Origin: Rhodospirillales bacterium
Lineage (GTDB): Bacteria > Pseudomonadota > Alphaproteobacteria > Rhodospirillales > Casp-alpha2
Reading direction: 5' to 3'
NCBI GenBank assembly: GCA_965262415.1
Contig: OZ253533.1
Location: 1,131,222-1,195,221, forward strand
DNA length: 64,000 nucleotides
Of this stretch, positions 6,714 through 61,640 are shown in pieces; the stretch's first letter is position 1; every line of letters starts with the position of its first letter. The notes beneath the pieces are model-generated. The model was not told where the DNA came from. It ran no database searches and worked only from the letters and a program-made list of their open reading frames with translations. The position numbers and the translations under genes are program-made.

Positions 6714-6725
6714 TTCAGGCGCGCC

Positions 6726-12683: not shown

Positions 12684-12688
12684 CGTGC

Positions 12689-28069: not shown

Positions 28070-28100
28070 CGCGGACCCGGGGCGTAAGCCCTGCCGTGGG

Positions 28101-28135
28101 GACCCCCGCCAGCGATGGCGGGGGTCTTTTCGTTT
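28101..28135 (+). terminator. Rho-independent terminator of glnBA
   Basis: gacccccgcc-agcgat-ggcgggggtc (10-bp perfect stem) followed by ttttcgttt. Confidence 0.8.
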
Positions 28136-28338
28136 GTGTTTCGGATCAAAGGAACGGTGCCAGCTGTCGAAACCGTATCTCCTCCTTGCGACAGAGCGTC
28201 GAGCTATCGAAAAGGGCGGCCGGAGAAATCCGCCGTCCTTTCACTATGGTCCTAGATCGAACGCTAGGAGGCCCGGTAGACCCGCAGAGCCGACGGGTTT
28301 CGGGAATCGAGCGGGTGGCCGCTGATGACCCTGAGCGG

Positions 28339-28590
28339 TCATGAGGCCGTCATTCCGGCAAGCATGGCGCCTAGTGCCACGATATGGATCAACATGATCG
28401 CCTTGTCATTCCAAAGCACGCCGACTGCGAACCAACCAACCACGCCAACCACAAACAGATAAAGGTTCCATGGCGTCATTCCGAACGCAGTCGCCGCATA
28501 TCCCATGATCTGGATAATGGACGCGATCCACTTGATAACGAGTACTACTCTGGTTCCGTTAAAGGTCGAAACGGCCACGTCAGACGGCAC
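28339..28590 (-). CDS. Hypothetical 83-aa membrane protein (about 3 TM)
   Basis: Hydrophobic ORF in the AT-richer islet. Overlaps the SDR stop by 11 nt. Confidence 0.5.
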   Translation of the reverse strand: MPSDVAVSTFNGTRVVLVIKWIASIIQIMGYAATAFGMTPWNLYLFVVGVVGWFAVGVLWNDKAIMLIHIVALGAMLAGMTAS

Positions 28591-29287: not shown

Positions 29288-29394
29288 TGGAACCTCCAAT
29301 TCTCTGAGAGAGCGGGAAAATATACCTCTCTAGGCTCAGCGACTAATCATTTGTCATTGCATATCCAGTAGTTTTTCTACAGCCTTTGATCATT

Positions 29395-47146: not shown

Positions 47147-47725
47147 GTGTCCGACCCGATCCTCATCGCCATGACCGGCGCATCCGGTGCCATTTACGGC
47201 ATCGAGACCCTGCGCCTGCTCAAGGAAATTGGCCAACCCGCACACCTGATCCTGTCGGAGGTCGCGCGCCGCACCATCGAGATCGAAACCGACGTCAGCG
47301 TCGACGAGGTCAAGGCGCTGGCCGAGGTGGTTCATTCGAACAGGGACCAGGCAGCCTGCGTTTCCAGCGGTTCGTACCGGACGCGCGGTATGCTGATCGC
47401 GCCATGCTCCATCAAGACGCTGTCCGGGATCGCCAATTCCTACGCCGACAACCTGATCATCCGGGCCGCAGATGTGTGCCTCAAGGAACGCCGGCGCCTC
47501 GTTCTGATGGTCCGCGAAACGCCCTACCATGCCGGACATATCGAGCTGATGCGCCGGGCCACGGATGCAGGCGCGATCATTTTCCCGCCGATGCCCGCGT
47601 TCTATGCCAAACCGAAAAGCATCGAGGATCTGGTGCGACAGAGCGTCGGCCGCGCGCTCGACCTGTTCGAGATAGAGCACGAGGAAATCACCCGCTGGAT
47701 GGGACCGCCGACCCAAGAACGTTGA
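47147..47725 (+). CDS. ubiX: Flavin prenyltransferase UbiX
   Basis: IAMTGASGAIYGIETLRLL and LIAPCSIKTLSGIANSYADNLIIRAADV motifs. GTG start. Confidence 0.9.
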   Translation: MSDPILIAMTGASGAIYGIETLRLLKEIGQPAHLILSEVARRTIEIETDVSVDEVKALAEVVHSNRDQAACVSSGSYRTRGMLIAPCSIKTLSGIANSYADNLIIRAADVCLKERRRLVLMVRETPYHAGHIELMRRATDAGAIIFPPMPAFYAKPKSIEDLVRQSVGRALDLFEIEHEEITRWMGPPTQER

Positions 47726-47774
47726 GGGGATCGACGGCGGTAAACAACACCGGAATGACCGGCGCAGACCGATT

Positions 47775-47803
47775 TTTTTCGCAGTTGTCATGCGTGCTTC
47801 AGG
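47775..47803 (+). promoter_or_regulatory. Conserved upstream box, copy 1 (TTTTTCGC-N3/4-TTGTCATGCG-N3-TTCAG)
   Basis: tttttcgcagttgtcatgcgtgcttcagg lies 50 nt before the 47853 gene. A near-identical box is at 48425. Confidence 0.45.
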
Positions 47804-47852: not shown

Positions 47853-48404
47853 TTGACCCGGCCCCTCGTTATGACATCCAGCATCCGCTTTATCCTCGCT
47901 ACCACATTGATTGCGCTTGCTCTTTCGGTGCCATCGCTTCCGCTCGAAGCCAAAAAAGGCGGTGGTGGCGGTGGTGGCGGTGGTGGCGGCGGTGGCGGCG
48001 GTGGCGGCCCCGCCCCGGTAACGATCGACGTGCGCCGGGATCTCGATTTCGGCGATGCAGCTGGGGACGGCTCGCTCTCCGGCACGGTCACCCTGAACCC
48101 GATTACCGAAATAAAAACCGTATCTGGCGGCGTGATCGATTTCGGCGGCCGCGAGCATGTCGCGGAGTTCCGGATCAACGGCGACAAGAATGCCGATGTC
48201 TACGTGGTGCTGCCGGCTTCGGTCACCATCACCACACCGGGCGGCACGATGACAATAAACAGCTTCACGATGGATCAGGGCAACCCGGTCAATCTCGGCA
48301 GCAAGGGACGGGCTACGATCAAGGTCGGCGCCACACTGAACCTGTCGCCCGGACAAAGCGCCGGCAACTATACCGGCAGCTTCACGATCTCGGCGGATTA
48401 TTGA
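47853..48404 (+). CDS. Secreted DUF4402-type fibre subunit with an N-terminal Gly17 tract
   Basis: Signal peptide, KKG(17)PAP, then DLDFG ... INGDK ... VGATLNLSPGQSAGNYTGSFTISADY (C-terminal G-x-Y-x-G-x-F-x-V/I-x-x-x-Y signature). Confidence 0.75.
   Translation: MTRPLVMTSSIRFILATTLIALALSVPSLPLEAKKGGGGGGGGGGGGGGGGGPAPVTIDVRRDLDFGDAAGDGSLSGTVTLNPITEIKTVSGGVIDFGGREHVAEFRINGDKNADVYVVLPASVTITTPGGTMTINSFTMDQGNPVNLGSKGRATIKVGATLNLSPGQSAGNYTGSFTISADY
47958..48008 (+). repeat. In-frame (GGY)17 triplet/nonamer repeat
   Basis: ggc ggt ggt x3, then ggc ggc ggt x2, then ggc ggc. That is 51 nt of uninterrupted GGY codons. Confidence 0.95.
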
Positions 48405-48424
48405 CGCCGTCCAGAAGGCGCCAC

Positions 48425-48454
48425 TTTTTCGCGAACTTGTCATGCGGCGTTCAG
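48425..48454 (+). promoter_or_regulatory. Conserved upstream box, copy 2
   Basis: tttttcgcgaacttgtcatgcggcgttcag lies upstream of the 48593 gene. Confidence 0.45.
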
Positions 48455-48592
48455 CTTTCACGGCTAGTTACATGGCGTAAGGAATGCGTGATGGCGACGA
48501 CGCCGAATGGACGGCAAAACGGCGCCGGTTACTGGCGCAATCACGCATCCGAATGCTGCATTATGTGCCTGGACCAATCGAACTCCTGACTG

Positions 48593-49114
48593 GTGTTGCC
48601 CGCAATGAAAGTTTCTTCTCGGCTCACGGCGTCGTTGTTGAAGACAATTATTTGTCTCGCGCTCGTTCAGACGGTATCGGGCAGCCCCGCTAGCGCGCAG
48701 ACACCGGCGCCGCTGCAACTCATTCAAAAAAGAGACATAAAATTCGGTACGTACGCGAGCGACATCGCCGCGCCCGGCACCGTCATTCTGAGTCCGAACA
48801 GCGACACCACATCCACCACGGGTGCGGTCTTCGACTTCGGCGGCGTCGTCAAGCGGGCAAGGTTTCAGATACTCGGCGAACCGAAAAGCTATGTCATCGT
48901 GACGCTGCCGACATCGATCACCATTCGCAAGGGAACCTCGTCGCATACTATGGTGGTCGACACGTTCACCATGGACAACACGAACCCTATCCGCCTGAAC
49001 AAGAACGGCAAGAGAACGATCAACATCGGCGCGACACTGCACGTCGGTATCAATCAGCGGAAAGGCAATTACAAGCGGGACAACGAATTCGTCGTCTACG
49101 TCGACTATCAATAG
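48593..49114 (+). CDS. Secreted DUF4402-type fibre subunit (paralogue of 47853)
   Basis: Signal peptide, DIKFG, FDFGG, ILGEPKS, and C-terminal IGATLHVGINQRKGNYKRDNEFVVYVDYQ. Confidence 0.75.
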   Translation: MLPAMKVSSRLTASLLKTIICLALVQTVSGSPASAQTPAPLQLIQKRDIKFGTYASDIAAPGTVILSPNSDTTSTTGAVFDFGGVVKRARFQILGEPKSYVIVTLPTSITIRKGTSSHTMVVDTFTMDNTNPIRLNKNGKRTINIGATLHVGINQRKGNYKRDNEFVVYVDYQ

Positions 49115-49130
49115 AAACCGGCAAAAACGC

Positions 49131-50003
49131 CTATGGCGCGGTTGCGGTCGCTTCCGCCATCAGCTCGGCACCCTCGTCGGCAATCGTCCGGTAAGCGACG
49201 TGCAACTGGTTGCCGGACAGAGTGACACCGTCCGGCACGCGCAACGTCATCTCAACGGTGCGGCTGTCATTCGGGGTATAGACGGCAAGCCGCATGACCC
49301 GTGCCACGACCACATCCTTGCCACCGGCCTTGAGCGTTGCCGTCAAATCGCCGAACGCGGAACGGTCACCGCTGCGGTCGAGATTGAAACGAATGCGCGG
49401 CAGATCGCCCTGCTGTGCCGCCGGAAGGAACTGCATGTCGCTAATGGTCACCGATTGCTTCAAGTCGCCGTGACGGACGATCACCGGAATGGCGATCCCG
49501 AAAACCGGGATCAGCCGTACAGCAGCACCGGTCGCCGGCGCCTCGACACTCTGTGATTCGACGTCGGGAACGGCGCGCATCATCAGGTGCGAACGGTATT
49601 CGCCCGGCGCCAGGTCTTTCGGCTTGCGCAGGAGAATCCGGATCGCCTGAGACGCCCCGGGCGCCAGCGAGACTTGTCGCGGCGAATAACGGAACAGCCG
49701 ATCGGCGAAATTCTGGCCTTCTTCCGGTTGCGCGATCTCGACCATGTTGCCGTTCTGCTCCATACGCATGTTGACGACGGAAATTCGGTAGGTCGCCGTT
49801 GCAGAACCCTTGTTCACCAAACCCAGCTGCGCCGAGCGGGTACGTCCCTCGAAGACGACACGGGTCGGCGCAACGACCAGATCGCCGGCGCTTTGCGCCG
49901 CCACCGTTGCCCCCTCGCCAAGCAGTGCAGCAAGCACCAGCATGGCGATGCCGGCAATTCGTGTGGCGGCGGCCGGGCCGCGATCTTTCGAAGTTCGGGT
50001 CAT
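49131..50003 (-). CDS. PapD-like periplasmic pilus chaperone
   Basis: Signal peptide, then LVVAPTRVVFEGRTRSAQLGLVNKGSATATYRISV (PapD_N pattern with the conserved Arg), and a second Ig-like domain. Confidence 0.72.
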   Translation of the reverse strand: MTRTSKDRGPAAATRIAGIAMLVLAALLGEGATVAAQSAGDLVVAPTRVVFEGRTRSAQLGLVNKGSATATYRISVVNMRMEQNGNMVEIAQPEEGQNFADRLFRYSPRQVSLAPGASQAIRILLRKPKDLAPGEYRSHLMMRAVPDVESQSVEAPATGAAVRLIPVFGIAIPVIVRHGDLKQSVTISDMQFLPAAQQGDLPRIRFNLDRSGDRSAFGDLTATLKAGGKDVVVARVMRLAVYTPNDSRTVEMTLRVPDGVTLSGNQLHVAYRTIADEGAELMAEATATAP

Positions 50004-50058
50004 GGGTAAGGCCTTCCTCTCAAAAGGTCCGGGCTGTCTTTATGTTTCGGAAATCTGT

Positions 50059-50829
50059 TCAGTTGTAGGAAACGACGATGCTGACGAACGGCGCGCTGGG
50101 CGAAAATGCCTGCGCGAGAACCGTTTCCCGCTCGCCCGCACCGGCACCGTCCGCTCCGGCGGAGGTCTGCTGCGAGCCGGCCGGCTGGTCACCGCCGGAT
50201 TGCTGCTGGCCGGATTGCCCGCCCTGTGCCTGCCTAGCGGCGGTCACGGCACCGACACTGAAAACATCGGCGCCGGATGCATCAAGCGACGGGGTCAGCC
50301 CGGCGCTGTGTTCGAATCCGCTGTAGCTGACAAGGCTGGCACCGTTCGAAAATACCGTCTGCTGCGGCAGGATCACGGCATAGGCCTGATTCGGCGCACC
50401 GGCAACGGCGATTGCCGCACTCGGACCGACCGGCACCACCGCCAATCCGGAACGCTGGAAACGAGGCGCCGCGGCGGTTCGCGTGCCGCTGCCGCCAGAG
50501 GCCGCCGGGGCTGGCGTCGGCGCCGGCGCATCGAAACCGATGTTGGTCGTCGTCGAAACGAGGATTGCCGGAATGCTGTTCGATCCGGTGAACGTCTGCC
50601 GTACTACGGTCGTCTGCTGCACCACCGTGGTCTCGGTCGTCACAGTGCCGATGCTGCCGGCGCCGTAGATGGTCGCGCCGACGGACGCGGTCGCCTGTGC
50701 CGCCTGTGCGCTCACATCAAGGAGCACCGCGCCGCTGCCGACGATGCCGAATGCGATGGCAAGTGCCCCGAATTGCCGAGCCGAAGTCATCAATGGTGCG
50801 CCCTGTAAATGATACGAATCGTACGTCAT
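50059..50829 (-). CDS. Two-module secreted subunit: T/V/Q-rich N-module, Pro/Ala linker, DUF4402-like C-module ending VSIVVSYN
   Basis: Signal peptide (starts possible at 50829 or 50790), TVTTETTVVQQTTVVRQTFTG, APAPTPAPAASGG, and a Q/G/S-rich insert before the terminal strand. Confidence 0.6.
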   Translation of the reverse strand: MTYDSYHLQGAPLMTSARQFGALAIAFGIVGSGAVLLDVSAQAAQATASVGATIYGAGSIGTVTTETTVVQQTTVVRQTFTGSNSIPAILVSTTTNIGFDAPAPTPAPAASGGSGTRTAAAPRFQRSGLAVVPVGPSAAIAVAGAPNQAYAVILPQQTVFSNGASLVSYSGFEHSAGLTPSLDASGADVFSVGAVTAARQAQGGQSGQQQSGGDQPAGSQQTSAGADGAGAGERETVLAQAFSPSAPFVSIVVSYN

Positions 50830-50900
50830 ATTCTGCCCTTGTTTGATCTCAATATCAAATGTTTAGCGGCAATCGCCGTCCTGTCGCGCTCAATACCGTC

Positions 50901-50933
50901 AAACAGAAAGGCCGCCGGGATGAACCGGCGGCC
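50901..50933 (-). terminator. Rho-independent terminator immediately after the major subunit gene
   Basis: Minus-strand read: ggccgccgg-ttcatc-ccggcggcc, followed by TTTCTGTTT. Confidence 0.75.
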
Positions 50934-50980
50934 CTTCTGTCGTTAGTTTCTCGCCAGCCTCGACTGAGGCGCGTTCGTCA

Positions 50981-51490
50981 TCAGTTGTACGACACCGTCA
51001 CCGTGAAGCTGCCCGAATAGCTGTCGGCAGCCTGGTTGGCGCCGACCGCCAGGGCGGCACCGACGTTCACGGAAGAGGCGCCAGAACCGTCCAGCGTCGG
51101 CGTCGCGCCAGCGTCGTCGGACAGGGTCGCCGTCATGTCTGCGCCGCCGGAACCGCCAGTCGCGGACAGCGTGGCCGAAGCCGGAACCACGAGCGAAAAG
51201 GTCTGGTTTGCTTCACCGGAAACAGCGAAAGACGCGGCGGTCGGCGCGTCACCCGACAGCAGGTCGACGTTGGCGTCGCCCGTCCGGGTGCCCGTCGTGC
51301 TGACGGTCACGGTACCGGCGGAGGTGGTCGGCGCGATCAAGCCGAATTCGAGGTCGGAAGTCTTGGAGATGGCAATCGGCGCCGTAATCGTGGCCGCTGC
51401 GGAGGCAGTGGCGTCGGCTGCTTTGGCGGCACCCGGAATGGCAATCATGGCAATGAGCGCGACCGCTCCGAGGACGTTGTTCTTCTTCAT
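50981..51490 (-). CDS. DUF4402-type putative major fibre subunit
   Basis: MKKNNVLGAVALIAMIAIPGAAKA signal, DLEFG, and C-terminal VGANQAADSYSGSFTVTVSYN. Ala/Thr/Ser/Gly-rich like structural pilins. First gene of its operon, followed by a terminator. Confidence 0.8.
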   Translation of the reverse strand: MKKNNVLGAVALIAMIAIPGAAKAADATASAAATITAPIAISKTSDLEFGLIAPTTSAGTVTVSTTGTRTGDANVDLLSGDAPTAASFAVSGEANQTFSLVVPASATLSATGGSGGADMTATLSDDAGATPTLDGSGASSVNVGAALAVGANQAADSYSGSFTVTVSYN

Positions 51491-51838
51491 GGTCTTTACC
51501 CTTTTGTCGAAACCCAATCGCTTGGGAAGTGAAAGTCTAAACTCGGCCGGTCGCTGACCATCCGATACCGCCATTTCGTAAGGCCGTTACCTGACAGAAA
51601 CATGACGAATTAAAAAATAATCGAATTATTTCAGAAGCTTACAGAAAGCTGACATAATCGGACAAATACCTTACAGCGCCTTACAATTTTGGTGGCGCCG
51701 GCCCCACGGGGTGGCACTTCCGGGCCGTTATGCTTAAGCCGTCTTTAACCATGATCGCCGCACTATGACCGGCGAGAGTCTGTGCGGCGCACTGGGCGCG
51801 CCGGGCCGGCTTTCGGGTAACTGGGACGAAGCGGTCGG

Positions 51839-54800
51839 TTGAAAACGAACACGCCAACTGGGAAAGGGCGCGGCATCCGCTGCACGATTCTTGCCGCCTT
51901 GCTGGCACTGGCGGCGCTGACCGGCAAGGCACAGGGCGATGTCGTCGACATGCCGCCTGCAGAGGAGGTCAAGTCGGTCTCCATGGACATGCCGCCGCCG
52001 GCACCTGAAACGGCACAGGCTCCCCCGCCGACACCGTCCCTCCCTGCCGCGCCTGCGTCCGGGCAGGCACCGCCGCCAGCACCGGCGACCCCGTATACGC
52101 AGCCGGAGCGCTCGGAAGAAGAACTGCTGATCCTGAAAATGACCCTCGGCAGTCTCGACCTCAGCGATGCGATCCTCGGTTACCCCAACCAGGGCAGCCT
52201 GCTCTTGCCACTGAGCGACGTGGTCGGGCTCTTCGATTTCCCCATCGAGGTCGATCCCGAGAACGGTCGAGCGGAGGGATGGTTCATTGAGGAGAATCGC
52301 CTGTTCTCGCTGGACCTTTCGGCCCGGCAGGTCGTCATCGCCGGCGAGAGCCGGACCGTGAACCCGGCTTACATGGAGCAGTTGCCCGACGACATCTACG
52401 TCGACGTGCGCGAGCTTGCGGTCTGGTTCCCCGTCGACATCGAGTTCGACCTGCCAAATCTGATCGTCGATGTGACATCGCGCGAGCCCCTGCCGATCGA
52501 GGCGCGCCTGCTACGTGATCAGCGCCGCGAAAAGGCACTCTCGCAGCGCCGGACCGACAAGCGTGATCTCAAGGAGGTCGAGGTACCATACGAATGGATC
52601 ACTTGGCCGGTCTCCGACACGACCGTGAACTTCACCGTCACCTCGGGCGACGACGGGCCCGAACTTACACGATCTTTCACGACCCTCGCCACGGCCGACC
52701 TGGCCAAGCTCAACGCCGACATATTCCTCTCCGGCGATGACACCGAGCGACTGAGCATCGCGCGCCTGAAACTGGGGCGGCAAAGCACCCGCGGCGATCT
52801 TCTCGGGGATATTGAGGCAACACAGTTCGCGGTCGGCGATATCTTCGCACCACAGGTGACGCACGTCTCGCGTACCGCGCTCGGCCGTGGCGCCTTCGTA
52901 TCGAATGAACCCATCGGCCAGCAGGTGGAGTTCGACCGTATCACGCTGCAGGGCGACCTGCAGCTAGGCTGGGAGGTCGAACTTTACCGGAACGAGGTTC
53001 TGCTCGATTTCCGCCAATCCCAGACCGACGGGCGCTATCTGTTCGAGGACGTGCCGCTCCTGTTCGGCGTCAATGTGCTCAAGCTGGTTTTCTACGGTCC
53101 TCAGGGACAGCGCCGCGAGGAGATCCAGCAGCTTCGCATCGGTTCGGAGCAGATCAAGCCGGGCGAGCACCTGTACGCGGTGTCCGCCAACCAGCAGGAC
53201 AGTCTGCTGCTGCTGGGTGACAAGGACAGCCTCAACACGGACGGCTTCCAGGGAAAATCACGGATGACCGCGGAGTACAAGTACGGCCTCAGCAAGGAGC
53301 TCTCGGTCGGTGCGAACTTCGCCAGCATCCCGTTCGAGGGCGGACACCGGTCCTACGGTGGCGCAAGTATGGTCGCGTCGCTCGGCCCGGTCTATACGCG
53401 CGCCGACGTGACCAAGGACATCGGCGCCGGCTGGGCCGGCACGCTGTCGGCCCAGACCAATATATTCGGCGTCACAGTGCTCGGCGAGCACACGTATCTC
53501 AACGATTTCCTGAGCGAGGAGTTCAGCGACGAGGCCGATCCGCTGGAATCGGAATCGCGTCTGCGCCTCGACGGCGTCCTGCGCGGCGGCTTTTTGCCGC
53601 ATATCCCCTATGCACTGACCGTCAACCACAGCGTCAACAAGTCACGCGACCGCTCGACCGAACTTCAGAACAGGCTATCGACGGCGATTGGTCCGGCATC
53701 CGTGACCAACACCCTGAACCTGGCCCTCACGGACCCGGCCGAATCCGCCGACAGTACCAGCGTCAGCGGCTCCCTTCAGATCGGCGGCAGGATCGGCGCG
53801 GTCCGGACACGTGGTCAGATCAGCTATGCGATCGACCCCGAAGCAACGATCAATTCCGCGGCGCTTTCCGGCGACTGGCGGCTCTCGCCGACGCTCAACG
53901 CGCGCGCCGGCATCAACAAGGAGCTGACCGGGTCACAGAAAGCGACCTACTCGATGGGCGTCAGTGCCGATGTCGATTACGTCGCGCTCGGTGTCGACGG
54001 ACAGTACGACGACCTCGGCGATTACGCGCTCAAACTGCAGTTCACCTATTCCTGGGGCAAGGATGCCGCGGACGGCGGCCTGCGCGTGAGCTCCAAGCCG
54101 ACCGCCGAGCGCGGTACCATGACCGTCAAGGTGTTCCGCGATCTGGACGGCGATGGCGCCTTCACCGACGGCGTCGACGAGCCCCTCGAGGGTGTCGGGT
54201 TCCGTTCCGGACGGGCGCAGCTGCCGCAAAAGACCAATGCCGAAGGCCTCGCTTTCGTCACCGGGCTCGACACCTACAGCCCGGTCCCGTTCGAGGTCGA
54301 TATCGGCTCCCTGGAAGATCCCTTCTGGATCGCCGCGCCCGAGGCGGTCAAGGTATCGCTTCGGCCCGGCGTGCCCGGCGAAATGGCGTTCGCCGTAATT
54401 TCGACCGGCGAGATCGACGGCGTCGTATATCGCCGGGACGGCGACTGGTCGGAACCGGTCTCCGATGTGCACGTGCAGCTCGTGGACATGTCGGGCGACG
54501 TCGTCAAGGAGGTCCGCTCGCAGTATGACGGCTTCTATCTTCTCGATTTCCTGCGCCCGGGTCGCTACACGCTACGTATCGACCCCGAGCAACTGACGCG
54601 CCTGAAGCTGCCTGACGTCCCGGCACGCAACGTGGAAATCGGTAACGACGGCACCATCCTCGGTGGCGAGGATTTCGTTATCGGCGGAGCCCTCGAAACG
54701 GAAGCCGCGTTCCGGGCACGGCTCGCCGCATTCGAGACGCAAGCCGCCGCCGAGGCGGCGTGGGCGGAGATCGGCGACCTCATCCGCAAGGGCCACGACG

Positions 54801-54970
54801 GGATCCGGCCGACCTACCAGGACACGCCAGCCGCGGACGGCACCGGCACGGTCGTGCACCTGTTCGCCGGTCCGTTCACCAGCCGCACCGCTGCCGGGGA
54901 CGCATGCACCCAGTTGCGCGCCGAATTCGGGAATACGTGGTGCAACCCGCAAGACATCCAGGCCCAATAG
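51839..54970 (+). CDS. 1043-aa secreted usher-like outer-membrane protein with Pro-rich N-terminus and C-terminal regulatory-like and SPOR-like modules
   Basis: TTG start and signal peptide. Pro-rich 60 aa. An N-domain reminiscent of usher NTDs (EELLILKMTLGSLDLSD ... LLLPLSDVVGLFDFPIEV). A long region of alternating beta-strand-like sequence. DLDGDGAFTDG, then GVVYRRDG ... YDGFYLLDFLRPGRYTLRI (CarboxypepD_reg-like), and a final roughly 85 aa that are SPOR-like. Confidence 0.7.
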   Translation: MKTNTPTGKGRGIRCTILAALLALAALTGKAQGDVVDMPPAEEVKSVSMDMPPPAPETAQAPPPTPSLPAAPASGQAPPPAPATPYTQPERSEEELLILKMTLGSLDLSDAILGYPNQGSLLLPLSDVVGLFDFPIEVDPENGRAEGWFIEENRLFSLDLSARQVVIAGESRTVNPAYMEQLPDDIYVDVRELAVWFPVDIEFDLPNLIVDVTSREPLPIEARLLRDQRREKALSQRRTDKRDLKEVEVPYEWITWPVSDTTVNFTVTSGDDGPELTRSFTTLATADLAKLNADIFLSGDDTERLSIARLKLGRQSTRGDLLGDIEATQFAVGDIFAPQVTHVSRTALGRGAFVSNEPIGQQVEFDRITLQGDLQLGWEVELYRNEVLLDFRQSQTDGRYLFEDVPLLFGVNVLKLVFYGPQGQRREEIQQLRIGSEQIKPGEHLYAVSANQQDSLLLLGDKDSLNTDGFQGKSRMTAEYKYGLSKELSVGANFASIPFEGGHRSYGGASMVASLGPVYTRADVTKDIGAGWAGTLSAQTNIFGVTVLGEHTYLNDFLSEEFSDEADPLESESRLRLDGVLRGGFLPHIPYALTVNHSVNKSRDRSTELQNRLSTAIGPASVTNTLNLALTDPAESADSTSVSGSLQIGGRIGAVRTRGQISYAIDPEATINSAALSGDWRLSPTLNARAGINKELTGSQKATYSMGVSADVDYVALGVDGQYDDLGDYALKLQFTYSWGKDAADGGLRVSSKPTAERGTMTVKVFRDLDGDGAFTDGVDEPLEGVGFRSGRAQLPQKTNAEGLAFVTGLDTYSPVPFEVDIGSLEDPFWIAAPEAVKVSLRPGVPGEMAFAVISTGEIDGVVYRRDGDWSEPVSDVHVQLVDMSGDVVKEVRSQYDGFYLLDFLRPGRYTLRIDPEQLTRLKLPDVPARNVEIGNDGTILGGEDFVIGGALETEAAFRARLAAFETQAAAEAAWAEIGDLIRKGHDGIRPTYQDTPAADGTGTVVHLFAGPFTSRTAAGDACTQLRAEFGNTWCNPQDIQAQ

Positions 54971-55036: not shown

Positions 55037-56167
55037 CTAGATGGCGACAAGCAGCGCCGCCAGCACGCCGAGCCAGTAGTGCAGTACCGTTACCCCGATC
55101 AGGTTCTTCTGGCGTAGATAGACGTAGCCAAAGACGATGCTGGCGAAAAAGGTGATCACCACGGCATCGATGCCGAACGTGATATGCAGCGAGGCAAAGA
55201 CGACGCTCGTCATGAAAATCGCGCGGTGGCCCTTGGTATCGTTCAGGAACTTCTGGAACAGCCCCTGCAACAGGCCGCGCGATCCGACCTCCTGAAACAG
55301 GGAATGTGCGAGGTACTGGACGAGAAAAAGTCCGTCGACCGTCACCCCTGTGCTGCCGCCTGCCGGCGTTTCCCTGAAGCCGAACATGTAAACGGCAGCC
55401 GGTATCGTGATGACGATGCAGATGATGATCGATTCAACAAGCGCGCGCCAAAATCCCTCCCGCTTGATGCCAAGATCCGCCAGCGGAATCTTCATCAACT
55501 TGATAATCAGAAGGCACGGCACCGCCAGGAAAAAGACCGTCTGCCACGAGAACCCGGGATCGTAGACATCCTGCACGTAATCTTCGGCGACGAGATAGAA
55601 CAGCATCGTCGAAATCAGGAAAATCGAGATCGTAAACAGCAGGAAGTGCCCGAACTGCTGCTGCGTCTTGGCGTCTTCCAGCTGACGCTTGAGGGCGGCA
55701 ATCTGTTTCTCGGTACTGACCCGCATCCGCTCAACGACGGTAATGCCGATGCTGGCCCGCAGATTGTCGTAGAAATGGTCGCCATTCTCGAGCGCCAGAA
55801 GATCGAAAGGATGAACCTTCAGAAGCGTGCCGTCCGTGTCCGCGCGCACGCTGATCTGCCGTGGTCCACCGTCGAGAAACGATACCTCGCCCAGAACGTC
55901 ACCCGGGCCCAGCCGCGCCACCTGCCATTCAACCTCGTCCCCGTGACCGGCACGAAAGCCGATGACGTGCCCCTCTTCGATCAGATAGAAATCGTTGGTT
56001 TGATCCCCTTCCGCGAAAATAAGATCGCCCGCCTTGAAGGAAACCTTCTCGGCGATAGACAGCATGGCGTCCCGGGTATCCGGCGCCAGCATACGCAGGC
56101 CTTTCTTCTGCCCGCGTTTCACCGCGGCCTCTTCGCCGGCTTGTTGCGTGGATGCTTCGTCCGCCAT
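55037..56167 (-). CDS. Cyclic-nucleotide-binding domain fused to a CPBP (CAAX/Abi) intramembrane protease domain
   Basis: cNMP motif GEVSFLDGGPRQISVRA. CPBP motifs QEVGSRG, FASLH and VLHYWLG. Start at MADEAS (GGGAGGA upstream). Confidence 0.8.
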   Translation of the reverse strand: MADEASTQQAGEEAAVKRGQKKGLRMLAPDTRDAMLSIAEKVSFKAGDLIFAEGDQTNDFYLIEEGHVIGFRAGHGDEVEWQVARLGPGDVLGEVSFLDGGPRQISVRADTDGTLLKVHPFDLLALENGDHFYDNLRASIGITVVERMRVSTEKQIAALKRQLEDAKTQQQFGHFLLFTISIFLISTMLFYLVAEDYVQDVYDPGFSWQTVFFLAVPCLLIIKLMKIPLADLGIKREGFWRALVESIIICIVITIPAAVYMFGFRETPAGGSTGVTVDGLFLVQYLAHSLFQEVGSRGLLQGLFQKFLNDTKGHRAIFMTSVVFASLHITFGIDAVVITFFASIVFGYVYLRQKNLIGVTVLHYWLGVLAALLVAI

Positions 56168-56374
56168 TGATCCTCCCGCCGTCATTCTGGCCTTTGGGGC
56201 AGGAAGTTTCCACACCCCCGTTGCGGCATCGACCAGCCGAAGATTCCAATGCCACACCTCACCGGTCCGGGACAGGTCCTTGATGGCCCCTCCCGTTGGA
56301 CGGGTGCGGTCTGCGAAGGTATTCTGGCGGCGAACGTCAACGACGACGCATGCAGACAGCAATCGGACACGGCA

Positions 56375-57901
56375 TTGAGCCAGAACCGCAACGTCTTAAT
56401 CATTAACGCCTACTTCAATCCGTGGCGCAAATCGACGCCGACTCGGTGGTTCATTCCGCGCGCGATGGCGCCCATTTACCTGGCCGGTCACTTCAACCGC
56501 GATAACGTCCAGGTCCGGGTATGGGACGAGGTATTCGACGGCACCCTGCTCGACCCGAAGCTGTTCGAATGGCCGGACCTGGTCGTGTTCACCGGACTGA
56601 CATCGGCATTCGACCGGACGCATCAGCTGTCCGCGTATTTCCGCCACGCCAATCCCACCGTCGTGACGGCGATCGGCGGCCCCATCGCACGTGCGCTGCC
56701 GGGCCTCTGTGCCGAGGTCTTCGACCATGTCAGTCAGGGCGATGTCGAGGACGTCTGCGACATCATTCGTGACGTGTTCGGTGCGGACTGCGTTTCCGAA
56801 ACCGGCGCGCCGCGGTTCGATCTTGCCCGGCCGTCGATGGGCGTGGGGTATCTGGAGACTACGAAGAACTGTAACTTCGCCTGTTCGTTCTGTTCGCTGA
56901 CCGGAGAGCAACGGGCGTACGTGCCGCACAGCGACCAGTCCATCCATCGGCAACTTGACGCCATGAAGAACGTGCTCGGCGTAATGGTGCTGGATAACAA
57001 TTTTTACGGCAGCAGCCGGGAAAGCTTTCACCACCGCGTCGAAATGATAGGCGAACGCTGGCGCCAGGGGCAGTTCCGCGGCTGGGGCGCGCTGGTGACG
57101 GGCGATTTCTTCCGGCATCCGGAAAACGTCGAGCTGATGGCGCGGAACGGATGCAAGGCGGTGTTCTCAGGTGTCGAGTCCCTTGACCCTGCCGTCCTGA
57201 AGACGTTCAACAAGAAGCAAAGCATCCTGTCCGATCCGCGCACGCTGACCCGCATCTGCGCCGAGCATGGCATGTTTTTCGACTACGGCATGATTGCGGA
57301 TTTTTCGCAGCAGACGGTGTCCGAGGTGGGTGGCCAGCTGGATGCCGCGCTGCACGACCACACGATTCCGCTGCCGAGCCTGCTGACCCTGACCATCCCG
57401 ATCGTCGGCACCCCCTACTTTGACGCCGCCGCCGGCGCCGGGCGGCTGATGCCCGATCTCTGCCTGAGCGATCTGGACGGTCAGAAGGTCGTCGAGTGGC
57501 CGAAGGAGCCGCTCGAAAAAGTGGTGCCGTTCGTCGCCGATCTTCTGCGGTTTCGCGGACGCAAGGCGGCCCTTGCGCGCCACGCATTCAAGCATGCTTG
57601 GCACTGGCGCCGGCACTTCGACTGGGACCAGACGGCGCTGGCACTGGTGCGGCCGCTGCACCGCTTCGGCGGCAGCATCAATATCAACGTCGGCAGTGTC
57701 CGCCAGATGCGTCAGGGCTTGCTGGAACCGCCGCTGACCTATTGCGCCATGACAGACGAACTGCGCTCGGCCTATACGCCACGGGTACGGCTGCCGTCGA
57801 AATTCGAGAAATGCTTTAATCCGCTCCGGGTCACCGATGCCGACGGCGCGCTCACGGATGCGCTCCTCAAGGCCCGTTCAATGCCGCCGGCCGCCGCCTG
57901 A
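56375..57901 (+). CDS. Radical SAM protein with N-terminal B12-binding-like Rossmann module
   Basis: NVLIINAYFNPW ... LVVFTGLTS, then TKNCNFACSFCS (CX3CX2C). The ORF opens at 56249. The TTG at 56375 is my preferred start, but it is uncertain. Confidence 0.72.
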   Translation: MSQNRNVLIINAYFNPWRKSTPTRWFIPRAMAPIYLAGHFNRDNVQVRVWDEVFDGTLLDPKLFEWPDLVVFTGLTSAFDRTHQLSAYFRHANPTVVTAIGGPIARALPGLCAEVFDHVSQGDVEDVCDIIRDVFGADCVSETGAPRFDLARPSMGVGYLETTKNCNFACSFCSLTGEQRAYVPHSDQSIHRQLDAMKNVLGVMVLDNNFYGSSRESFHHRVEMIGERWRQGQFRGWGALVTGDFFRHPENVELMARNGCKAVFSGVESLDPAVLKTFNKKQSILSDPRTLTRICAEHGMFFDYGMIADFSQQTVSEVGGQLDAALHDHTIPLPSLLTLTIPIVGTPYFDAAAGAGRLMPDLCLSDLDGQKVVEWPKEPLEKVVPFVADLLRFRGRKAALARHAFKHAWHWRRHFDWDQTALALVRPLHRFGGSININVGSVRQMRQGLLEPPLTYCAMTDELRSAYTPRVRLPSKFEKCFNPLRVTDADGALTDALLKARSMPPAAA

Positions 57902-59890: not shown

Positions 59891-60145
59891 TCAGCGCAAA
59901 CTCGACAGGTTGGCGATCAGTGCCGTTTCCTTCCGCCGCAGTTCCTCGGCGATCTTGTGCGCCAGATCCTGATCGGCGCTGCAACAGATATTGACGGCTT
60001 CGATGCAGCGTTCGTTTGTGCTGCGGATGGACTGTTCAAGCGCCGCCTCGATAATTTGCGAGACGTCGGCCAACCGGTCCGTTCCGTGCCCCAGCTTCTC
60101 AAGAACGTCCCGTGCCGTATCGTCCGCCAGCTCGTGCAATGACAT
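59891..60145 (-). CDS. Hypothetical 84-aa protein
   Basis: Isolated ORF predicted to be helical. No known motif. Confidence 0.45.
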   Translation of the reverse strand: MSLHELADDTARDVLEKLGHGTDRLADVSQIIEAALEQSIRSTNERCIEAVNICCSADQDLAHKIAEELRRKETALIANLSSLR

Positions 60146-60350
60146 TGTCGATCTCCCTACATTTTGAATGGTTAATGTATGCTGGTTTTGGTAGAATTCA
60201 ACACCTCACGCCTGTAATATTCTGAAACCGGCGGCAGTTCTGCGGTCATCCCTCATTCTCATTAGAAGACTATTCTGTTAGCATCCGGGCCAGGTATTGG
60301 GGGACACGGGGAAAAAGACCGGTCTACTGGTTTGGACAATTGGAAGGTTC

Positions 60351-61640
60351 ATGTCGGACGAACACATCAACATCATCAATGATGCGCTTCCCGCTCACCC
60401 GGGAAGCATCCTTCAGCCTTGGAAAATCCTGATCGTCGACGACGACGAATCTGTCCATCAGGCAACCAGGTTCGCGCTCGAAGATTTCGACTTCGAAGGA
60501 AGACCGCTGAATATCCTGAGCGCACACTCTGCTGCCGAAGCGCAGAATGTTATCGCCCTTGAAGAGGATATCGCCGTCATTCTGCTGGATGTCGTGATGG
60601 AACAGGAAACCATTGGGCTGGATCTCGTCCATTGGATACGGAATGAACAGAAAGACGACATGATGCGTATCGTGCTGCGCACCGGCCAACCCGGGTTCGC
60701 CCCCGAACTGAACGTCGTTCGCGACTATGATATCAACGACTACAAGGAAAAGAGCCAGATGACCGCCGCCAAGCTGGCGACGACGGTCTATTCGGCCCTT
60801 CGGTCGTACCGCGACCTCCACCGGCTTGCAGATCAGGCCATACGATTGAAGGACGCGCTGATGTCAGCGGAGACCGCTAACCGGGCCAAGGACAAGTTCA
60901 TTACCCACATGAGCCACGAATTCAGGACCCCTTTGAATGGAATCATCGGGCTTTCCGAAATGATCGCGAACGAGACGCTTGGGCCGCTCGGCAACAGCAA
61001 ATACAAGGAATATGCGTGGGATATCGTTGATTCGGGCCGCCAGTTGCAAAGAATGGTGGAAAGCGTGCTGGAATTCTCTGAAGAAGGAGAATTCGAGACG
61101 CTGGACATCGCCGAGTTCGATCTTCGTGAGTTGATCGACGAGTTGCCGGACCTCAGAAACAACGCGGAAGAACCGGAAAGAAAGAGAAACCGCATCCGCA
61201 TCAAAGAAAACCCGGCCAGGGAAGACAAACGTCTCATGCTCAACGCGGACCGCAACGCTGTCACCGCAATGTTGACGAACCTGATCTCAAACGCGCTGAA
61301 GCACAATCCGCCCAATTGCAACGTCCGCGTGACGGCAAAGCAGCTGGAACGCGGCGGGTTGCTGCTCACGGTGGCTGACGATGGCCGCGGGATCAGTCCC
61401 GAAGTGGTGCAGAACCTAGGGAAGCCCTTCAACATAGACGGCGACCCGCTGCTGTCCGGGAAAGGCGGGCTCGGTCTCGGTCTGGTTGCGACCAAGGCAC
61501 TCATCGAAAAACACGGCGGCGCGATGACGATTGCGTCCAATGCAATGTCCGGGACCAAGGTTTACTTGCGCTTCCCGGAAGGGAGTGTTGCAGAACATGA
61601 CCCCAAACGAAGAAAACGTGACGTCGATCCACCGAATTGA
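60351..61640 (+). CDS. Hybrid receiver-histidine kinase (REC N-terminal, HisKA and HATPase C-terminal)
   Basis: ILIVDDDESVH ... ILLDVVME receiver. H-box HMSHEFRTPLNGIIG. N and G boxes LISNALKHN, DDGRGIS, GLGLGLV. Start at MSDEHI (GGAAGG upstream). Confidence 0.85.
   Translation: MSDEHINIINDALPAHPGSILQPWKILIVDDDESVHQATRFALEDFDFEGRPLNILSAHSAAEAQNVIALEEDIAVILLDVVMEQETIGLDLVHWIRNEQKDDMMRIVLRTGQPGFAPELNVVRDYDINDYKEKSQMTAAKLATTVYSALRSYRDLHRLADQAIRLKDALMSAETANRAKDKFITHMSHEFRTPLNGIIGLSEMIANETLGPLGNSKYKEYAWDIVDSGRQLQRMVESVLEFSEEGEFETLDIAEFDLRELIDELPDLRNNAEEPERKRNRIRIKENPAREDKRLMLNADRNAVTAMLTNLISNALKHNPPNCNVRVTAKQLERGGLLLTVADDGRGISPEVVQNLGKPFNIDGDPLLSGKGGLGLGLVATKALIEKHGGAMTIASNAMSGTKVYLRFPEGSVAEHDPKRRKRDVDPPN

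Follow-up and report, generated by a model that had tools for sequence, protein, structure and literature searches.

A six-gene locus with DUF4402 subunits is probably a deeply divergent chaperone-usher system for assembling surface fibres

Introduction

The closest described systems to the locus that we discuss here are those of the chaperone-usher pathway, with outer-membrane ushers such as FimD and PapC and with both classical and non-classical (archaic or alternative) members. DUF4402, the Pfam family of the locus's subunits, overlaps with SCPU, the domain of archaic pilins and of spore coat protein U. In the open-access literature that we searched, we found no mention of DUF4402 and no study of this locus.

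We analyzed a 64,000-nucleotide stretch of DNA from a Rhodospirillales bacterium ("the window"). Positions 47853-54970 contain six adjacent genes, and all six open reading frames in an earlier note on this DNA were found where it had placed them. They encode three DUF4402 proteins, one degenerate DUF4402-like paralogue, a periplasmic chaperone of the PapD_N type, and a secreted protein of 1043 amino acids (signal peptides were called by eye only).

47853..48404, plus strand: subunit A, DUF4402 pilin-like (Pfam, E = 2.9e-26)
48593..49114, plus strand: subunit B, DUF4402 pilin-like (Pfam, E = 1.5e-24)
49131..50003, minus strand: C, periplasmic chaperone of 290 amino acids with a PapD_N-like N-domain (Pfam, hhalign)
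50059..50829, minus strand: subunit D, 256 amino acids, a degenerate DUF4402-like minor subunit (hhalign, termini)
50981..51490, minus strand: subunit E, 169 amino acids, the predicted major polymerising DUF4402 pilin (Pfam, AF2, Foldseek)
51839..54970, plus strand: F, 1043 amino acids, a predicted outer-membrane usher and structural homologue of FimD and PapC (AF2 and Foldseek)

The earlier note had taken this to be an uncharacterised locus for a chaperone-usher-like fibre with DUF4402 subunits, and our results support this. The six genes very probably build a surface fibre by the known chaperone-usher route, and we put the probability at about 80% that they form a complete, deeply divergent fibre assembly system of the non-classical (archaic- or alternative-like) type. 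The parts have diverged so far that the databases miss the outer-membrane pore.

Subunits and intergenic sequences

The DUF4402 assignment of three of the subunits is correct (Pfam E-values of 1e-24 to 1e-28). The family's C-terminus follows the pattern G-x-Y-x-G-x-F-x-V-T-V-x-Y-N, with the penultimate tyrosine present in 79 of 80 sequences, and the C-terminal strands that had been quoted for the four subunits are indeed in their sequences. A D(L/I)xFG motif was said to be common to all four; this holds for A, B, and E, but D reads NIGFD. A resemblance to SCPU/Csu archaic pilins had also been suggested. Of 80 DUF4402 homologues, 9 also match SCPU (PF05229).

The listed reading frame of E runs from 50981-51574 on the minus strand, and its true start is most likely at 51490. 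The resulting protein of 169 amino acids is identical (100%) to the public protein P0121, and it matches DUF4402 with E = 1.3e-28 (Pfam; 1.8e-28 for the listed frame). Profile comparisons with FimA and EcpA were not significant alone. By its predicted structure (AF2, pLDDT 90.5), E has a pilin-like fold: the best 47 Foldseek matches are almost all chaperone-usher pilins, including CfaB, Caf1, FimA/F/G, the PapG pilin domain, SafA, and CsuA/B, and the top match is weak (E = 6e-3, probability 0.99).

Mature E begins with a short extension:

51380..51418, minus strand: N-terminal extension of mature E, residues 25-37, ADATASAAATITA, a predicted donor strand (PSSM, consensus)

In the E-type family, the extension has an alternating consensus, xAxAxAxAxI, and in a leave-one-out PSSM, residues 25-37 of E score +16 bits. 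The median scores are +9.9 bits for E-type proteins (n=89), -22.5 bits for A-type proteins (n=26), and -18.0 bits for B-type proteins (n=23); since E-type sequences went into the PSSM itself, the scores inform us only through the contrast with A and B. The monomer model of E assigns no strand to the extension (AF2). We infer that it may serve as the donor strand.

The other subunits can be sorted by this extension. A, which probably starts at the ATG at 47871, has no positive PSSM match anywhere in the protein. Its signal peptide is followed by a run of 17 glycines, encoded by a short repeat:

47958..48009, plus strand: 9-nt tandem repeat (GGCGGTGGT)n, which codes for the poly-glycine tract of A (direct-repeat families D1-D3)

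B, which probably starts at the ATG at 48605, is similar to the E-type profile (hhalign, E = 2.9e-18) and lacks the extension, as its first core strand almost abuts the signal peptide (ASA, then QTPAPLQLIQKRDIKFG). None of 23 B-type homologues has an extension score above 8. D has no match in Pfam, but its core aligns to the DUF4402 profile (hhalign, E = 2.6e-6 over 61 columns) and its termini align by eye with those of DUF4402 subunits. Directly after its signal peptide is a weak extension-like motif, QATASVGATIYG; the best PSSM position in D is residue 45, at only +1.1 bits. In these sequences, then, the N-terminal extension divides the subunits into two classes: E and, weakly, D have it, while A and B do not.

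D had been described as a two-module adhesin-like subunit. We found no evidence for a second module: D looks like a single DUF4402-like core with two low-complexity insertions, one rich in Thr/Val and the other in Gln/Gly, the latter just before the C-terminal strand FVSIVVSYN. A is a candidate tip or cap subunit, and B a candidate for an alternative one. What counts against these roles is that A and B have one domain each, where two are usual in known tip adhesins.

A conserved box had been reported upstream of the two extra subunit genes. It is real, and it precedes A and B:

47773..47802, plus strand: conserved 30-nt box upstream of A, TTTTTTTCGCAGTTGTCATGCGTGCTTCAG (direct-repeat family D6)
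48425..48454, plus strand: second copy of the box, upstream of B (direct-repeat family D6)

The two boxes are 77% identical over 30 nt, and no other site in the window has the core TTGTCATGCGnnGTTCAG, even with one mismatch allowed. A and B may have their own promoters that share the box. A strong terminator had been placed after the gene for the major subunit, and there is one 3' of E, on the minus strand:

50903..50940, minus strand: hairpin resembling an intrinsic terminator, directly 3' of E, with a 17-bp stem and then UUUCUGUUUG
51491..51838, either strand: divergent intergenic region between E and F, with sigma-70-like matches

The hairpin corresponds to inverted repeat I20 (16-nt arms, 94% complementary). 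Its predicted RNA fold has an energy of -48.7 kcal/mol for 101 nt (z of -4.5), which none of 200 shuffles equalled. A GC-rich hairpin with a U-tract is kept at this position in 16 of 16 relatives, with differing sequences. The hairpin is probably an attenuator that sets the ratio of subunit to chaperone. Judging from its position, the region between E and F is probably the promoter region for both genes; on its plus strand, 51591-51687 contains three sigma-70-like sequences, which are consensus matches only.

These results bear on what the product looks like. Instead of an adhesin-tipped fibre, the same machinery could make a polymer coat, either amorphous or thin, much like the Caf1 capsule of Yersinia pestis or the spore coat that protein U forms in Myxococcus. 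Such a layer would be protective or anti-adhesive, or would serve as the matrix of a biofilm. In Foldseek, Caf1 chains rank among the closest structures to E, with the highest identity of the matches (18-20%); 3 of 80 DUF4402 homologues faintly match Antig_Caf1; the family overlaps with SCPU; and the locus encodes no two-domain adhesin. The mature N-terminus of E also resembles that of Caf1, ADLTASTTATATLVE. However, dedicated subunits without extensions and with their own putative promoters suggest a fibre with defined ends, and relatives have up to three paralogues of B, as is more typical of variable tip adhesins. Sequence alone does not separate a thin fibre from a capsule, and we consider a coat to be unlikely.

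Chaperone

C matches PapD_N at 25.8 bits (Pfam cut-off 23), as do 22 of 25 members of its family, and NCBI lists some of its homologues as 'fimbria/pilus periplasmic chaperone'. The motifs PTRVVFEG, PRQV, GEYRSH, and IPVIVRHG are invariant. C aligns to EcpB from E. coli (hhalign, E = 9.4e-5) and to FimC (E = 0.008, with R48 on R8 of FimC). In the EcpB alignment, R137, the invariant arginine of GEYR, falls on mature Arg89, which is the hallmark of non-classical chaperones. A PapD-like chaperone with two domains had been predicted. The first domain stands, but no PapD_C model matches the 110 C-terminal residues. From its sequence, C appears to be a pilus chaperone, with the N-domain as the part that the matches cover.

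Usher

F was noted earlier as a protein in the position of an usher that does not look like PF00577. Both parts hold: Pfam finds no Usher (PF00577) match, and by its predicted structure (AF2 with 55 sequences, pLDDT 84.4, pTM 0.65), F is a full-length usher. The expected outer-membrane barrel is predicted as well. When the model was searched against the PDB with Foldseek, 18 of the 20 best matches, including ranks 1-18, were ushers. The best were 9bog_D (2.2e-26), 3rfz_B (9.5e-26), and PapC (7lhg_C, 2.4e-25), with about 930 aligned columns. The order of domains is N-terminal domain, barrel with plug, CTD1, CTD2, and then an extra SPOR domain:

51839..52114, plus strand: signal peptide (residues 1-33, by eye) and disordered proline-rich linker (34-92) (sequence, pLDDT)
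52115..52483, plus strand: N-terminal periplasmic beta domain, residues 93-215, placed where ushers have their N-terminal domain (model, secondary structure)
52571..54091, plus strand: beta-barrel, residues 245-328 and 435-751, about 22-24 strands (strand list of the model)
52823-53140, plus strand: beta-sandwich inserted in the barrel, residues 329-434, placed where ushers have their plug (model)
54113..54682, plus strand: C-terminal periplasmic beta-sandwiches CTD1 (759-855) and CTD2 (857-948, CarboxypepD_reg-like) (Pfam, model)
54707..54967, plus strand: C-terminal SPOR domain, residues 957-1043 (Pfam, 28.8 bits; beta-alpha-beta-beta-alpha-beta in the model)

Residues 1-79 have pLDDT below 50. 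The full-length alignment to FimD and PapC covers the N-terminal beta domain, and the barrel matches the translocation domains of PapC and FimD (2vqi and 3ohn, E = 5e-17 and 1.5e-14). The most conserved motif of the family, ELYRNEVLLDF...FYGPQGQ, lies in the barrel/plug region (invariant columns 372-424), where one homologue also has a faint match to a TcfC usher domain. At the CTD position, 2 of 9 homologues faintly match PF00577 (E = 0.054). Residues 672-916 are colinear with EcpC (hhalign, E = 0.038) and residues 796-829 align with FimD 736-769 (E = 0.17), neither of which is significant alone. In Pfam, F matches SPOR above the cut-off of 21 bits and CarboxypepD_reg below threshold. The SPOR domain, which is absent from FimD and PapC, is carried by only part of the family (homologues from Massilia and Christiangramia lack it), and we predict that it tethers the usher to peptidoglycan.

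Conservation of the locus

The earlier note had suggested asking whether the components co-occur. The pilin, chaperone, and usher genes are all present in 62 of 80 related loci, from several phyla, and most of the other 18 are on short or truncated contigs. This recurrence and the Pfam E-values exclude chance. In 44 loci, the chaperone gene is directly upstream of the usher gene and co-directional, and in 26 relatives a D-type gene adjoins the chaperone gene. The triad is found in Christiangramia (Bacteroidota), Massilia, Novosphingobium, and Marinobacter; in the Bacteroidota locus, both the chaperone (hhalign, E = 1.4e-42) and the usher homologue (BLASTP, 2e-28) are the same as in the window. 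At 50% identity, the core usher family falls into about 1,500 clusters. We did not find conserved flanking genes around the related loci.

It is less likely still than a coat that nothing is assembled. In that case, F would be a general channel or transporter of the outer membrane with no more than the barrel fold in common with ushers, the DUF4402 proteins would be soluble monomers in the periplasm or outside the cell (such as binding proteins), and C would be an unrelated Ig-fold protein. None of the window's proteins reaches the PF00577, PapD_C, or SCPU models, the generic Ig-like families DUF4232, fn3_5, and FixG_C match C weakly, and F resembles LptD, porins, and TonB-dependent receptors at about 1e-5. 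However, the E-values of ushers are about 20 orders of magnitude better than those of any other barrel, and the N-terminal domain, the plug, and the CTDs are part of the match. C aligns to EcpB with the functional arginine in register, the three families co-occur across phyla in the canonical order of subunit, chaperone, and usher, and the presence or absence of an extension would have no obvious meaning for monomers. We give almost no credence to type V (Bacteroidia FimA/Mfa-like) or sortase-type pili, which use no usher and exchange strands after their lipoprotein precursors have been cleaved by proteolysis: DUF4402 genes do occur in Bacteroidota, and strand-exchange polymers do exist outside the pathway (Pam pili and archaeal cannulae), but A, B, D, and E lack a lipobox cysteine after their signal peptides, the Bacteroidota locus has both chaperone and usher, and the Pam pilin match is far under the cut-off (15.6 vs. 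55 bits, NCBIfam).

Proposed mechanism

If the locus is a chaperone-usher system, as we believe, then the four DUF4402-type subunits would be exported by Sec and captured in the periplasm by C, whose PapD_N-like domain would lend a strand to their incomplete Ig-like folds. The invariant Arg137 in GEYRSH would anchor the subunit's C-terminus (...VTVSYN). Chaperone-subunit complexes would dock on the N-terminal domain of F, and by donor-strand exchange the extension of an incoming E would displace the chaperone's strand from the previous subunit. With the plug displaced, a polymer of E would grow out through the roughly 24-strand barrel. Donor-strand complementation and exchange among E, C, and F, like fibre formation at this locus, the order of the subunits, and the fibre's morphology, are what we infer from the parts.

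A and B, which would be transcribed from their own box-sharing promoters, have no extension and so could only accept a strand, which makes them the best candidates for distal caps or adhesins, as alternatives to each other. D, with its weak extension motif and insertions, may be a minor subunit that acts as an adaptor or else as a terminator. The hairpin after E would damp read-through into D and C and so give an excess of the major subunit. SPOR, at the periplasmic C-terminus of F, would bind the usher to peptidoglycan.

Comparison with known systems

Neither Pfam nor NCBIfam assigns the genes to a characterised system. The locus represents a branch that is real, widespread, uncharacterised, and deeply divergent within the chaperone-usher pathway. 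It is nearer to the non-classical (archaic or alternative) systems than to the classical ones. Its divergence lies within a known pathway, and the mechanism is not itself new.

A probable divergent chaperone-usher locus

We propose that six genes at 47853-54970, referred to as A to F, encode a complete chaperone-usher system from a deeply divergent, non-classical branch of this pathway (we put the probability of this at about 0.8). An earlier note, made from the sequence, had described a chaperone-usher-like fibre locus with DUF4402 subunits. That reading is supported by the usher fold that is predicted for F, by the match of C to PapD_N and to EcpB, and by the assignments to DUF4402. The genes are:

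47853-48404, plus strand: A, a DUF4402 subunit of 183 amino acids (Pfam DUF4402, E = 2.9e-26, 93 bits)
48593-49114, plus strand: B, a DUF4402 subunit of 173 amino acids (Pfam DUF4402, E = 1.5e-24, 87.5 bits)
49131-50003, minus strand: C, the chaperone, 290 amino acids (Pfam PapD_N, 25.8 bits; gathering cut-off 23)
50059-50829, minus strand: D, a degenerate DUF4402-like subunit of 256 amino acids (no Pfam match)
50981-51574, minus strand (open reading frame; likely start at 51490, giving 169 amino acids): E, a DUF4402 subunit (DUF4402, E = 1.8e-28, 100 bits)
51839-54970, plus strand: F, the usher-like protein, 1043 amino acids (SPOR, 28.8 bits; CarboxypepD_reg below threshold; Usher absent)

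The Pfam gathering thresholds for DUF4402 (PF14352) and SPOR (PF05036) are 25.2 and 21 bits. A, B, and E score well above the former, in agreement with the DUF4402 signature that had been noticed in the subunits; D falls below it, and its partial match to DUF4402 was found by hhalign only. The sequence motifs that had been quoted for the four subunits are present, except that D has NIGFD instead of D(L/I)xFG near its N-terminus. We place the start of E at 51490 as most likely because the resulting product of 169 amino acids is identical to a public protein (P0121). None of the six proteins is covered by a model in NCBIfam (June 2026), and neither Pfam nor NCBIfam assigns them to an already characterised system.

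The layout is as it had been described, with a hairpin after the gene for E, then D and C on the minus strand, and F divergent from E. We consider the module to extend from A to F because the flanking genes are not conserved elsewhere. The ubiX-like, cNMP-binding/CPBP, B12 radical SAM, and glycosyltransferase genes, and others nearby, were rejected as members of the module, as they are not kept beside it.

The surroundings of the locus have a few features of their own. On the minus strand at 55037-56362, converging on F and not kept beside the module elsewhere, is a gene for a cyclic-nucleotide-binding domain that is fused to a CPBP/Rce1-like intramembrane protease. The start of this gene is overlapped by an open reading frame on the plus strand (56249-57901) whose product, 550 amino acids long, is a B12-binding radical SAM protein. 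The G+C content is 0.54-0.57 at 28001-30000 and at 60001-64000, as compared to about 0.62 in the rest of the window, and these stretches may be foreign or differently constrained DNA. At gathering thresholds, Rfam matches the window only once, at a tRNA gene (14143-14229, plus strand).

F is an usher by predicted fold

F stands where an usher would be expected, and it had been noted that it does not look like a PF00577 usher. At the level of sequence this is correct: neither PF00577 nor PapC_N or PapC_C matches F at E up to 1. Among nine homologues of F, two have faint matches to PF00577 (E = 0.054, 12.8 bits versus a cut-off of 27.1), and one has a faint match to the TcfC usher domain. By hhalign, F aligns with FimD at E = 0.17 and with EcpC at E = 0.038. 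Individually, these alignments are not significant, but they are located at the end of the barrel and in the C-terminal domains, where the structural model predicts them. When the PDB was searched by sequence, F and E had no significant match, and neither did profiles of F, of C, and of the subunits.

We predicted the structure of F (AF2) from an alignment with 54 homologues (pLDDT 84.4, pTM 0.65). The parts of the protein are:

Residues 1-92: signal peptide and proline-rich segment, disordered in the model
Residues 93-215: N-terminal domain, beta-rich in the model, with a linker helix next
Residues 245-751: barrel strands in the model, broken by a beta-sandwich insert at 329-434
Residues 759-855 and 857-948: two beta-sandwich C-terminal domains in the model
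Residues 957-1043: SPOR fold (Pfam match at 957-1031), with a beta-alpha-beta-beta-alpha-beta pattern in the model

The earlier note had proposed a beta-barrel prediction for this protein, and the model does contain a barrel of about 22-24 strands: 4-6 of them precede the insert and 18 follow it. In classical ushers, the barrel has 24 strands and the plug comes after strand 6, so the strand count and the position of the insert in F fit a 24-strand usher barrel with a plug. When the model was compared to the PDB with Foldseek, FimD and PapC accounted for 18 of the top 20 matches, including ranks 1-18, with a best E of 2.2e-26 and alignments of about 930 columns. This full-length match places F in the usher role by predicted structure. 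Isolated translocation domains were also matched (PapC at 5e-17 and FimD at 1.5e-14), while other outer-membrane barrels (LptD, porins, and TonB-dependent receptors) reached about 1e-5 only. On the evidence of the model, then, F is an usher by fold, with a predicted N-terminal domain, plugged barrel, and two C-terminal domains.

F also belongs to a sizeable family. A phmmer search with residues 90-760, the core of F, against 1.84 billion representatives of 50%-identity clusters found 1,489 with E up to 1e-30 and 2,902 with E up to 1e-3. This set does not reach the canonical ushers, so by sequence similarity the core of F defines a discrete family that is separate from them. The SPOR domain is carried by only part of the family. 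The homologues vary from about 850 to over 1,500 amino acids and can be extended at the N-terminus by as much as several hundred residues; in F itself, a disordered, proline-rich stretch of about 60 residues (residues 34-92, encoded at 51938-52114) lies between the signal peptide and the N-terminal domain.

C resembles non-classical chaperones

C had been described as a PapD-like chaperone with two domains. The N-terminal domain is well supported: Pfam's PapD_N is found in 22 of 25 homologues of C from related loci (best E = 2.8e-7), as well as in C itself. We found about 3,000 homologues of C, and some of these have been named "fimbria/pilus periplasmic chaperone" (NCBI) or "PapD" (JGI). The second domain has no such match, as PapD_C did not match the C-terminal 102-126 residues of four members of the family at E up to 10. 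The mature length of C (about 250 residues) is compatible with two domains.

We compared profiles for C, F, and the subunits to reference proteins from E. coli MG1655. With hhalign, the profile of C is closer to EcpB (E = 9.4e-5) than to FimC (E = 0.008). The alignment with EcpB, which ends at domain 1, places R137 of C (in GEYRSH; invariant in 25 of 25 homologues) on residue 109 of the EcpB pre-protein, which is Arg89 of the mature protein (alignment probability 59%). In the non-classical chaperones CsuC and EcpB, Arg89 lies in strand F of domain 1 and anchors the C-terminal carboxylate of the subunit (Pakharukova et al., PMC4654587). The sequence thus marks C as a chaperone of the non-classical type, with R137 as the putative equivalent of Arg89 by a moderate alignment. 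The carboxylate anchor of CsuC is completed by a pair in domain 2, Tyr196 and Arg174, and the invariant R210 of C and the conserved tyrosine of AVYTPN are candidates for this pair. Classical chaperones (PapD, FimC, and Caf1M) have a pair of basic residues in domain 1, Arg8 and Lys112 in PapD numbering. The invariant R177 of C, at the end of IPVIVRHG, is a candidate for the second of these. The alignment with FimC (E = 0.008) matches PTRVVFEG of C to ATRVIYPAG and places R48 on R8, and R48 is missing from Kiloniella-type members. The predicted G1 strand of C is …IPVFGIAIPVIVRHG.

Subunits and the putative donor strand

All 80 of the homologues of E that we considered match DUF4402. Nine of them also match SCPU (PF05229), and three match the Caf1 antigen family faintly; PF05229 does not match A, B, D, or E at E up to 1. 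JGI has named several of the homologues "spore coat protein U-like" or "Mat/Ecp fimbriae major subunit". A profile comparison with FimA (hhalign) was not significant. The predicted structure of E (pLDDT 90.5) appears to be pilin-like. Almost all of its matches in the PDB (Foldseek) are chaperone-usher pilins, namely CfaB (the top match), Caf1, FimA/F/G, the pilin domain of PapG, SafA, and CsuA/B, with a best E of only 6e-3 and a probability of 0.99. Hallmarks of classical pilins are a penultimate tyrosine and a glycine about 14 residues from the end. The C-terminus of the subunits, G-x-Y-x-G-x-F-x-V-T-V-x-Y-N, is conserved, with the penultimate tyrosine in 79 of 80 homologues. The mature forms of A, B, and E contain no cysteine, and neither does the mature region of 64 of the 80 homologues.

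The subunits differ at the other end. In subunits of the E type, the signal peptide is followed by 10-14 residues in which small and hydrophobic residues alternate (family consensus xAxAxAxAxI). In E from the window, this N-terminal extension is ADATASAAATITA, and the first strand of the core (PIAISK...DLEFG) comes next. In the B type, the cleavage site leads almost directly into the first core strand, and in the A type, the spacer is short or rich in glycine (A from the window has 17 glycines). When scored with a position-specific scoring matrix for the extension, the medians were +9.9 bits for the E type (n = 89), -22.5 for the A type (n = 26), and -18.0 for the B type (n = 23). With E from the window left out of the matrix, the long open reading frame of E still scored +16 bits (residues 54-65), and no position in A or B was positive. 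In D, the highest score was just +1.1 bits, at QATASVGATIYG, immediately past the signal peptide.

An extension that is present in E, weak in D, and missing from A and B is the pattern to be expected if E is a strand donor, D perhaps another, and A and B acceptors only. We infer that the extension of E acts as a donor strand. In known systems, the subunit that accepts a strand and donates none is the one at the distal tip, and a tip with one domain is known from Afa/Dr fibres, whose cap is AfaD/DraD. So A and B, as single-domain subunits without the extension, are probably caps.

The 17 glycines of A are encoded at 47958-48009 by a 9-nt tandem repeat, (GGCGGTGGT)n. The repeat unit is in frame, so slippage would alter the length of the linker and leave the frame intact. 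Glycine-rich spacers are also present in some homologues of the A type, such as those in L017 and L025 (related loci from other genomes).

Expression signals

Three elements were located:

50903-50940, minus strand: hairpin after E, with a 17-bp stem and a U-rich tail (z = -4.5)
47773-47802: 30-nt box before A
48425-48454: 30-nt box before B

In all 16 of the relatives that were examined, the position of the hairpin 3' of E is kept, and its sequence is not. This conservation of position fits attenuation between the gene for the major subunit and the genes for the minor subunit and the chaperone, so the hairpin may attenuate read-through from E into D and C. We also considered a terminator 3' of A, and rejected it because the fold there does not surpass that of shuffled sequences (z = -0.01).

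A conserved upstream box had also been described, and there is indeed one copy each before A and B. In the relatives L002-L010, the B-type genes have a related upstream motif, CGTCAGG-N5-GTCAT(G/C)C, whose GTCA repeats are 11 bp apart; we take it to be reminiscent of the direct repeats recognised by winged-helix response regulators (the Pho box is one example). Directly upstream of the B-type genes in L004 (at 3035-3784), and at the equivalent places in L003 and L005-L008, is a gene for a regulator of the Crp/Fnr family with an N-terminal cluster of cysteines (CAACEVRDHAVCG). In the window, this position is held by a gene for a ubiX-like flavoprotein instead (47147-47725).

Distribution and gene neighbourhood

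We scanned one genome per species for relatives of F and searched the open reading frames of the resulting 80 loci with the six proteins from the window. The loci are from Rhodospirillales, Kiloniellales, other Alpha- and Gammaproteobacteria, Acidobacteriota (Thermoanaerobaculia and Holophagales), and Nitrospinales, with a few in bins that are labelled Zixiibacteriota, Gemmatimonadota, or Flavobacteriales. The chaperone is present in 75 of the 80 loci, and subunit, chaperone, and usher occur together in 62. Of the 18 loci without the full set, most are on contigs that are short or truncated. The chaperone gene is directly upstream of the usher gene and in the same direction in 44 loci; this gives the canonical operon order of subunit(s), chaperone, and usher.

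Five more distant neighbourhoods have DUF4402 genes followed by a gene for about 280 amino acids and then by a gene for 860-1280 amino acids. These are from Christiangramia salexigens, Massilia sp. TS11, Novosphingobium, Marinobacter, and a metagenome contig. The Christiangramia locus has a homologue of C by hhalign (E = 1.4e-42) and one of F by BLASTP (2e-28), and the usher from Massilia matches F at 9e-118.

Some loci contain more subunit genes. Upstream of the chaperone gene in L034 (Nitrospinaceae, 2617-6900) and L058 (Acidobacteriota, 4024-6891) are 5-7 tandem DUF4402 paralogues, which suggests extensive diversification of subunits in some lineages. In L067, the same three subunit genes flank the usher gene on both sides (5238-7176 and 11963-13951), and their products are identical or nearly so; the inverted duplication is either real or an artefact of the assembly. 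The bin of L067 is labelled Flavobacteriales, and this label may be wrong because the sequence resembles the loci from Rhodospirillales.

Novelty and significance

Chaperone-usher pili are the best-understood adhesive fibres of bacteria. Surveys of these systems (Nuccio and Bäumler, 2007) reportedly rest on the PF00577 model for the usher, and to that model a whole branch of the pathway, with about 1,500 clusters of usher cores and about 3,000 homologues of the chaperone, would be invisible. This branch is common among bacteria from the sea and from soil, some of which belong to phyla that are not usually linked to such pili. In Pfam (2025 copy), DUF4402 is still a domain of unknown function and the barrel of F has no family. 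Open-access full text gave no paper for DUF4402, PF14352, or IPR025514, and nothing on this system for an usher with spore coat protein U, or for an usher with a SPOR domain and a pilus.

A more far-reaching proposal, to which we give roughly even odds, is that these loci form a distinct and ancient clade outside the six clades of PF00577 ushers, found in environmental Pseudomonadota, Bacteroidota, Acidobacteriota, and Nitrospinota. This clade would have its own DUF4402 pilins and an usher that is not covered by the HMM libraries; the usher would be tethered by SPOR in some lineages, and interchangeable single-domain caps (the A and B paralogues) would replace two-domain adhesins. By its fusion to SPOR, the usher would connect the assembly of the fibre to the cell wall in a new way. 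If SPOR does tether the usher to peptidoglycan, then it could site the assembly of the fibre at the septum or the new pole.

DUF4402 would gain a function, as would the unannotated proteins of about 900-1300 amino acids that are described as "SPOR/carboxypeptidase-regulatory domain" proteins. The locus would work like a known pathway, so we do not propose a new principle of assembly; the family does offer distantly related sequences with which to find out what is universal in donor-strand exchange. The locus is also carried by cultured bacteria, in which it can be tested, namely Kiloniella laminariae DSM 19542, Kiloniella majae, Denitrobaculum tricleocarpae, Christiangramia salexigens, and Massilia sp. 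TS11.

Comparison with known systems

The literature search gave one recently recognised type of donor-strand-exchange fibre, the Pam pili of CPR (Candidate Phyla Radiation) bacteria, whose Ig-like pilins and PapD-like chaperones were found by structure and not by sequence; these pili are reported to be specific to the CPR, with membrane-anchored chaperones in cells without an outer membrane (bioRxiv 10.64898/2026.03.03.709456). A has a faint match to the C-domain of the Pam pilin in NCBIfam (E = 0.013), but its 15.6 bits are far under the cut-off of 55 and Pam pili are CPR-specific, so we rejected this identity. Also, the locus has a chaperone of the soluble type and an outer-membrane usher.

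The classical Fim and Pap systems share several features with the locus. The overall architecture of the usher is the same, with FimD and PapC as the best structural matches of F; the penultimate tyrosine of the pilin is common to both; and E is followed by a terminator, as the major subunit genes fimA and papA are. Caf1, from the FGL capsule system, is a close structural match of E. However, FimC is a weaker match to C than EcpB is, the equivalent of R8 (R48) is not universal, C has no match to PapD_C, and the usher lies outside PF00577.

Archaic (sigma) pili, such as Csu of Acinetobacter baumannii and CupE of Pseudomonas aeruginosa, have the same gene layout of pilin, chaperone, and usher. 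Their pilin family (SCPU, PF05229) overlaps with that of the locus in the homologues that match both models, the structure of E matches CsuA/B chains, among others, and the strand-F arginine in domain 1 of the chaperone, typical of non-classical chaperones, is common to both. Both groups are also widespread beyond the enterobacteria. On the other hand, the subunits from the window fall short of PF05229, and the cysteines that are described as invariant in archaic pilin domains (PMC4654587) are missing from mature A, B, and E. Archaic subunits end with a phenylalanine, whereas those of the locus end with ...Y-N/Q. PF00577 detects the archaic usher CsuD and does not detect F, which is also set apart by its extra SPOR domain, and the locus encodes no counterpart of the two-domain tip adhesin CsuE.

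Among the three chaperone/usher pairs from E. coli that we used as references, the best profile matches are to the alternative (alpha) pili (the E. coli common pilus, EcpABCDE, and CFA/I). For Ecp, Arg89 of EcpB is in register with C, and EcpC is colinear with the end of the barrel and the C-terminal domains of F. For CFA/I, CfaB is the top structural match of E. One F homologue has its faint match to the usher domain of TcfC. Nevertheless, sequence identity between these systems and the locus is negligible. EcpA aligns with the pilins over 12 C-terminal residues only, and neither the large polymerising adhesin EcpD nor the second chaperone EcpE is matched in the locus.
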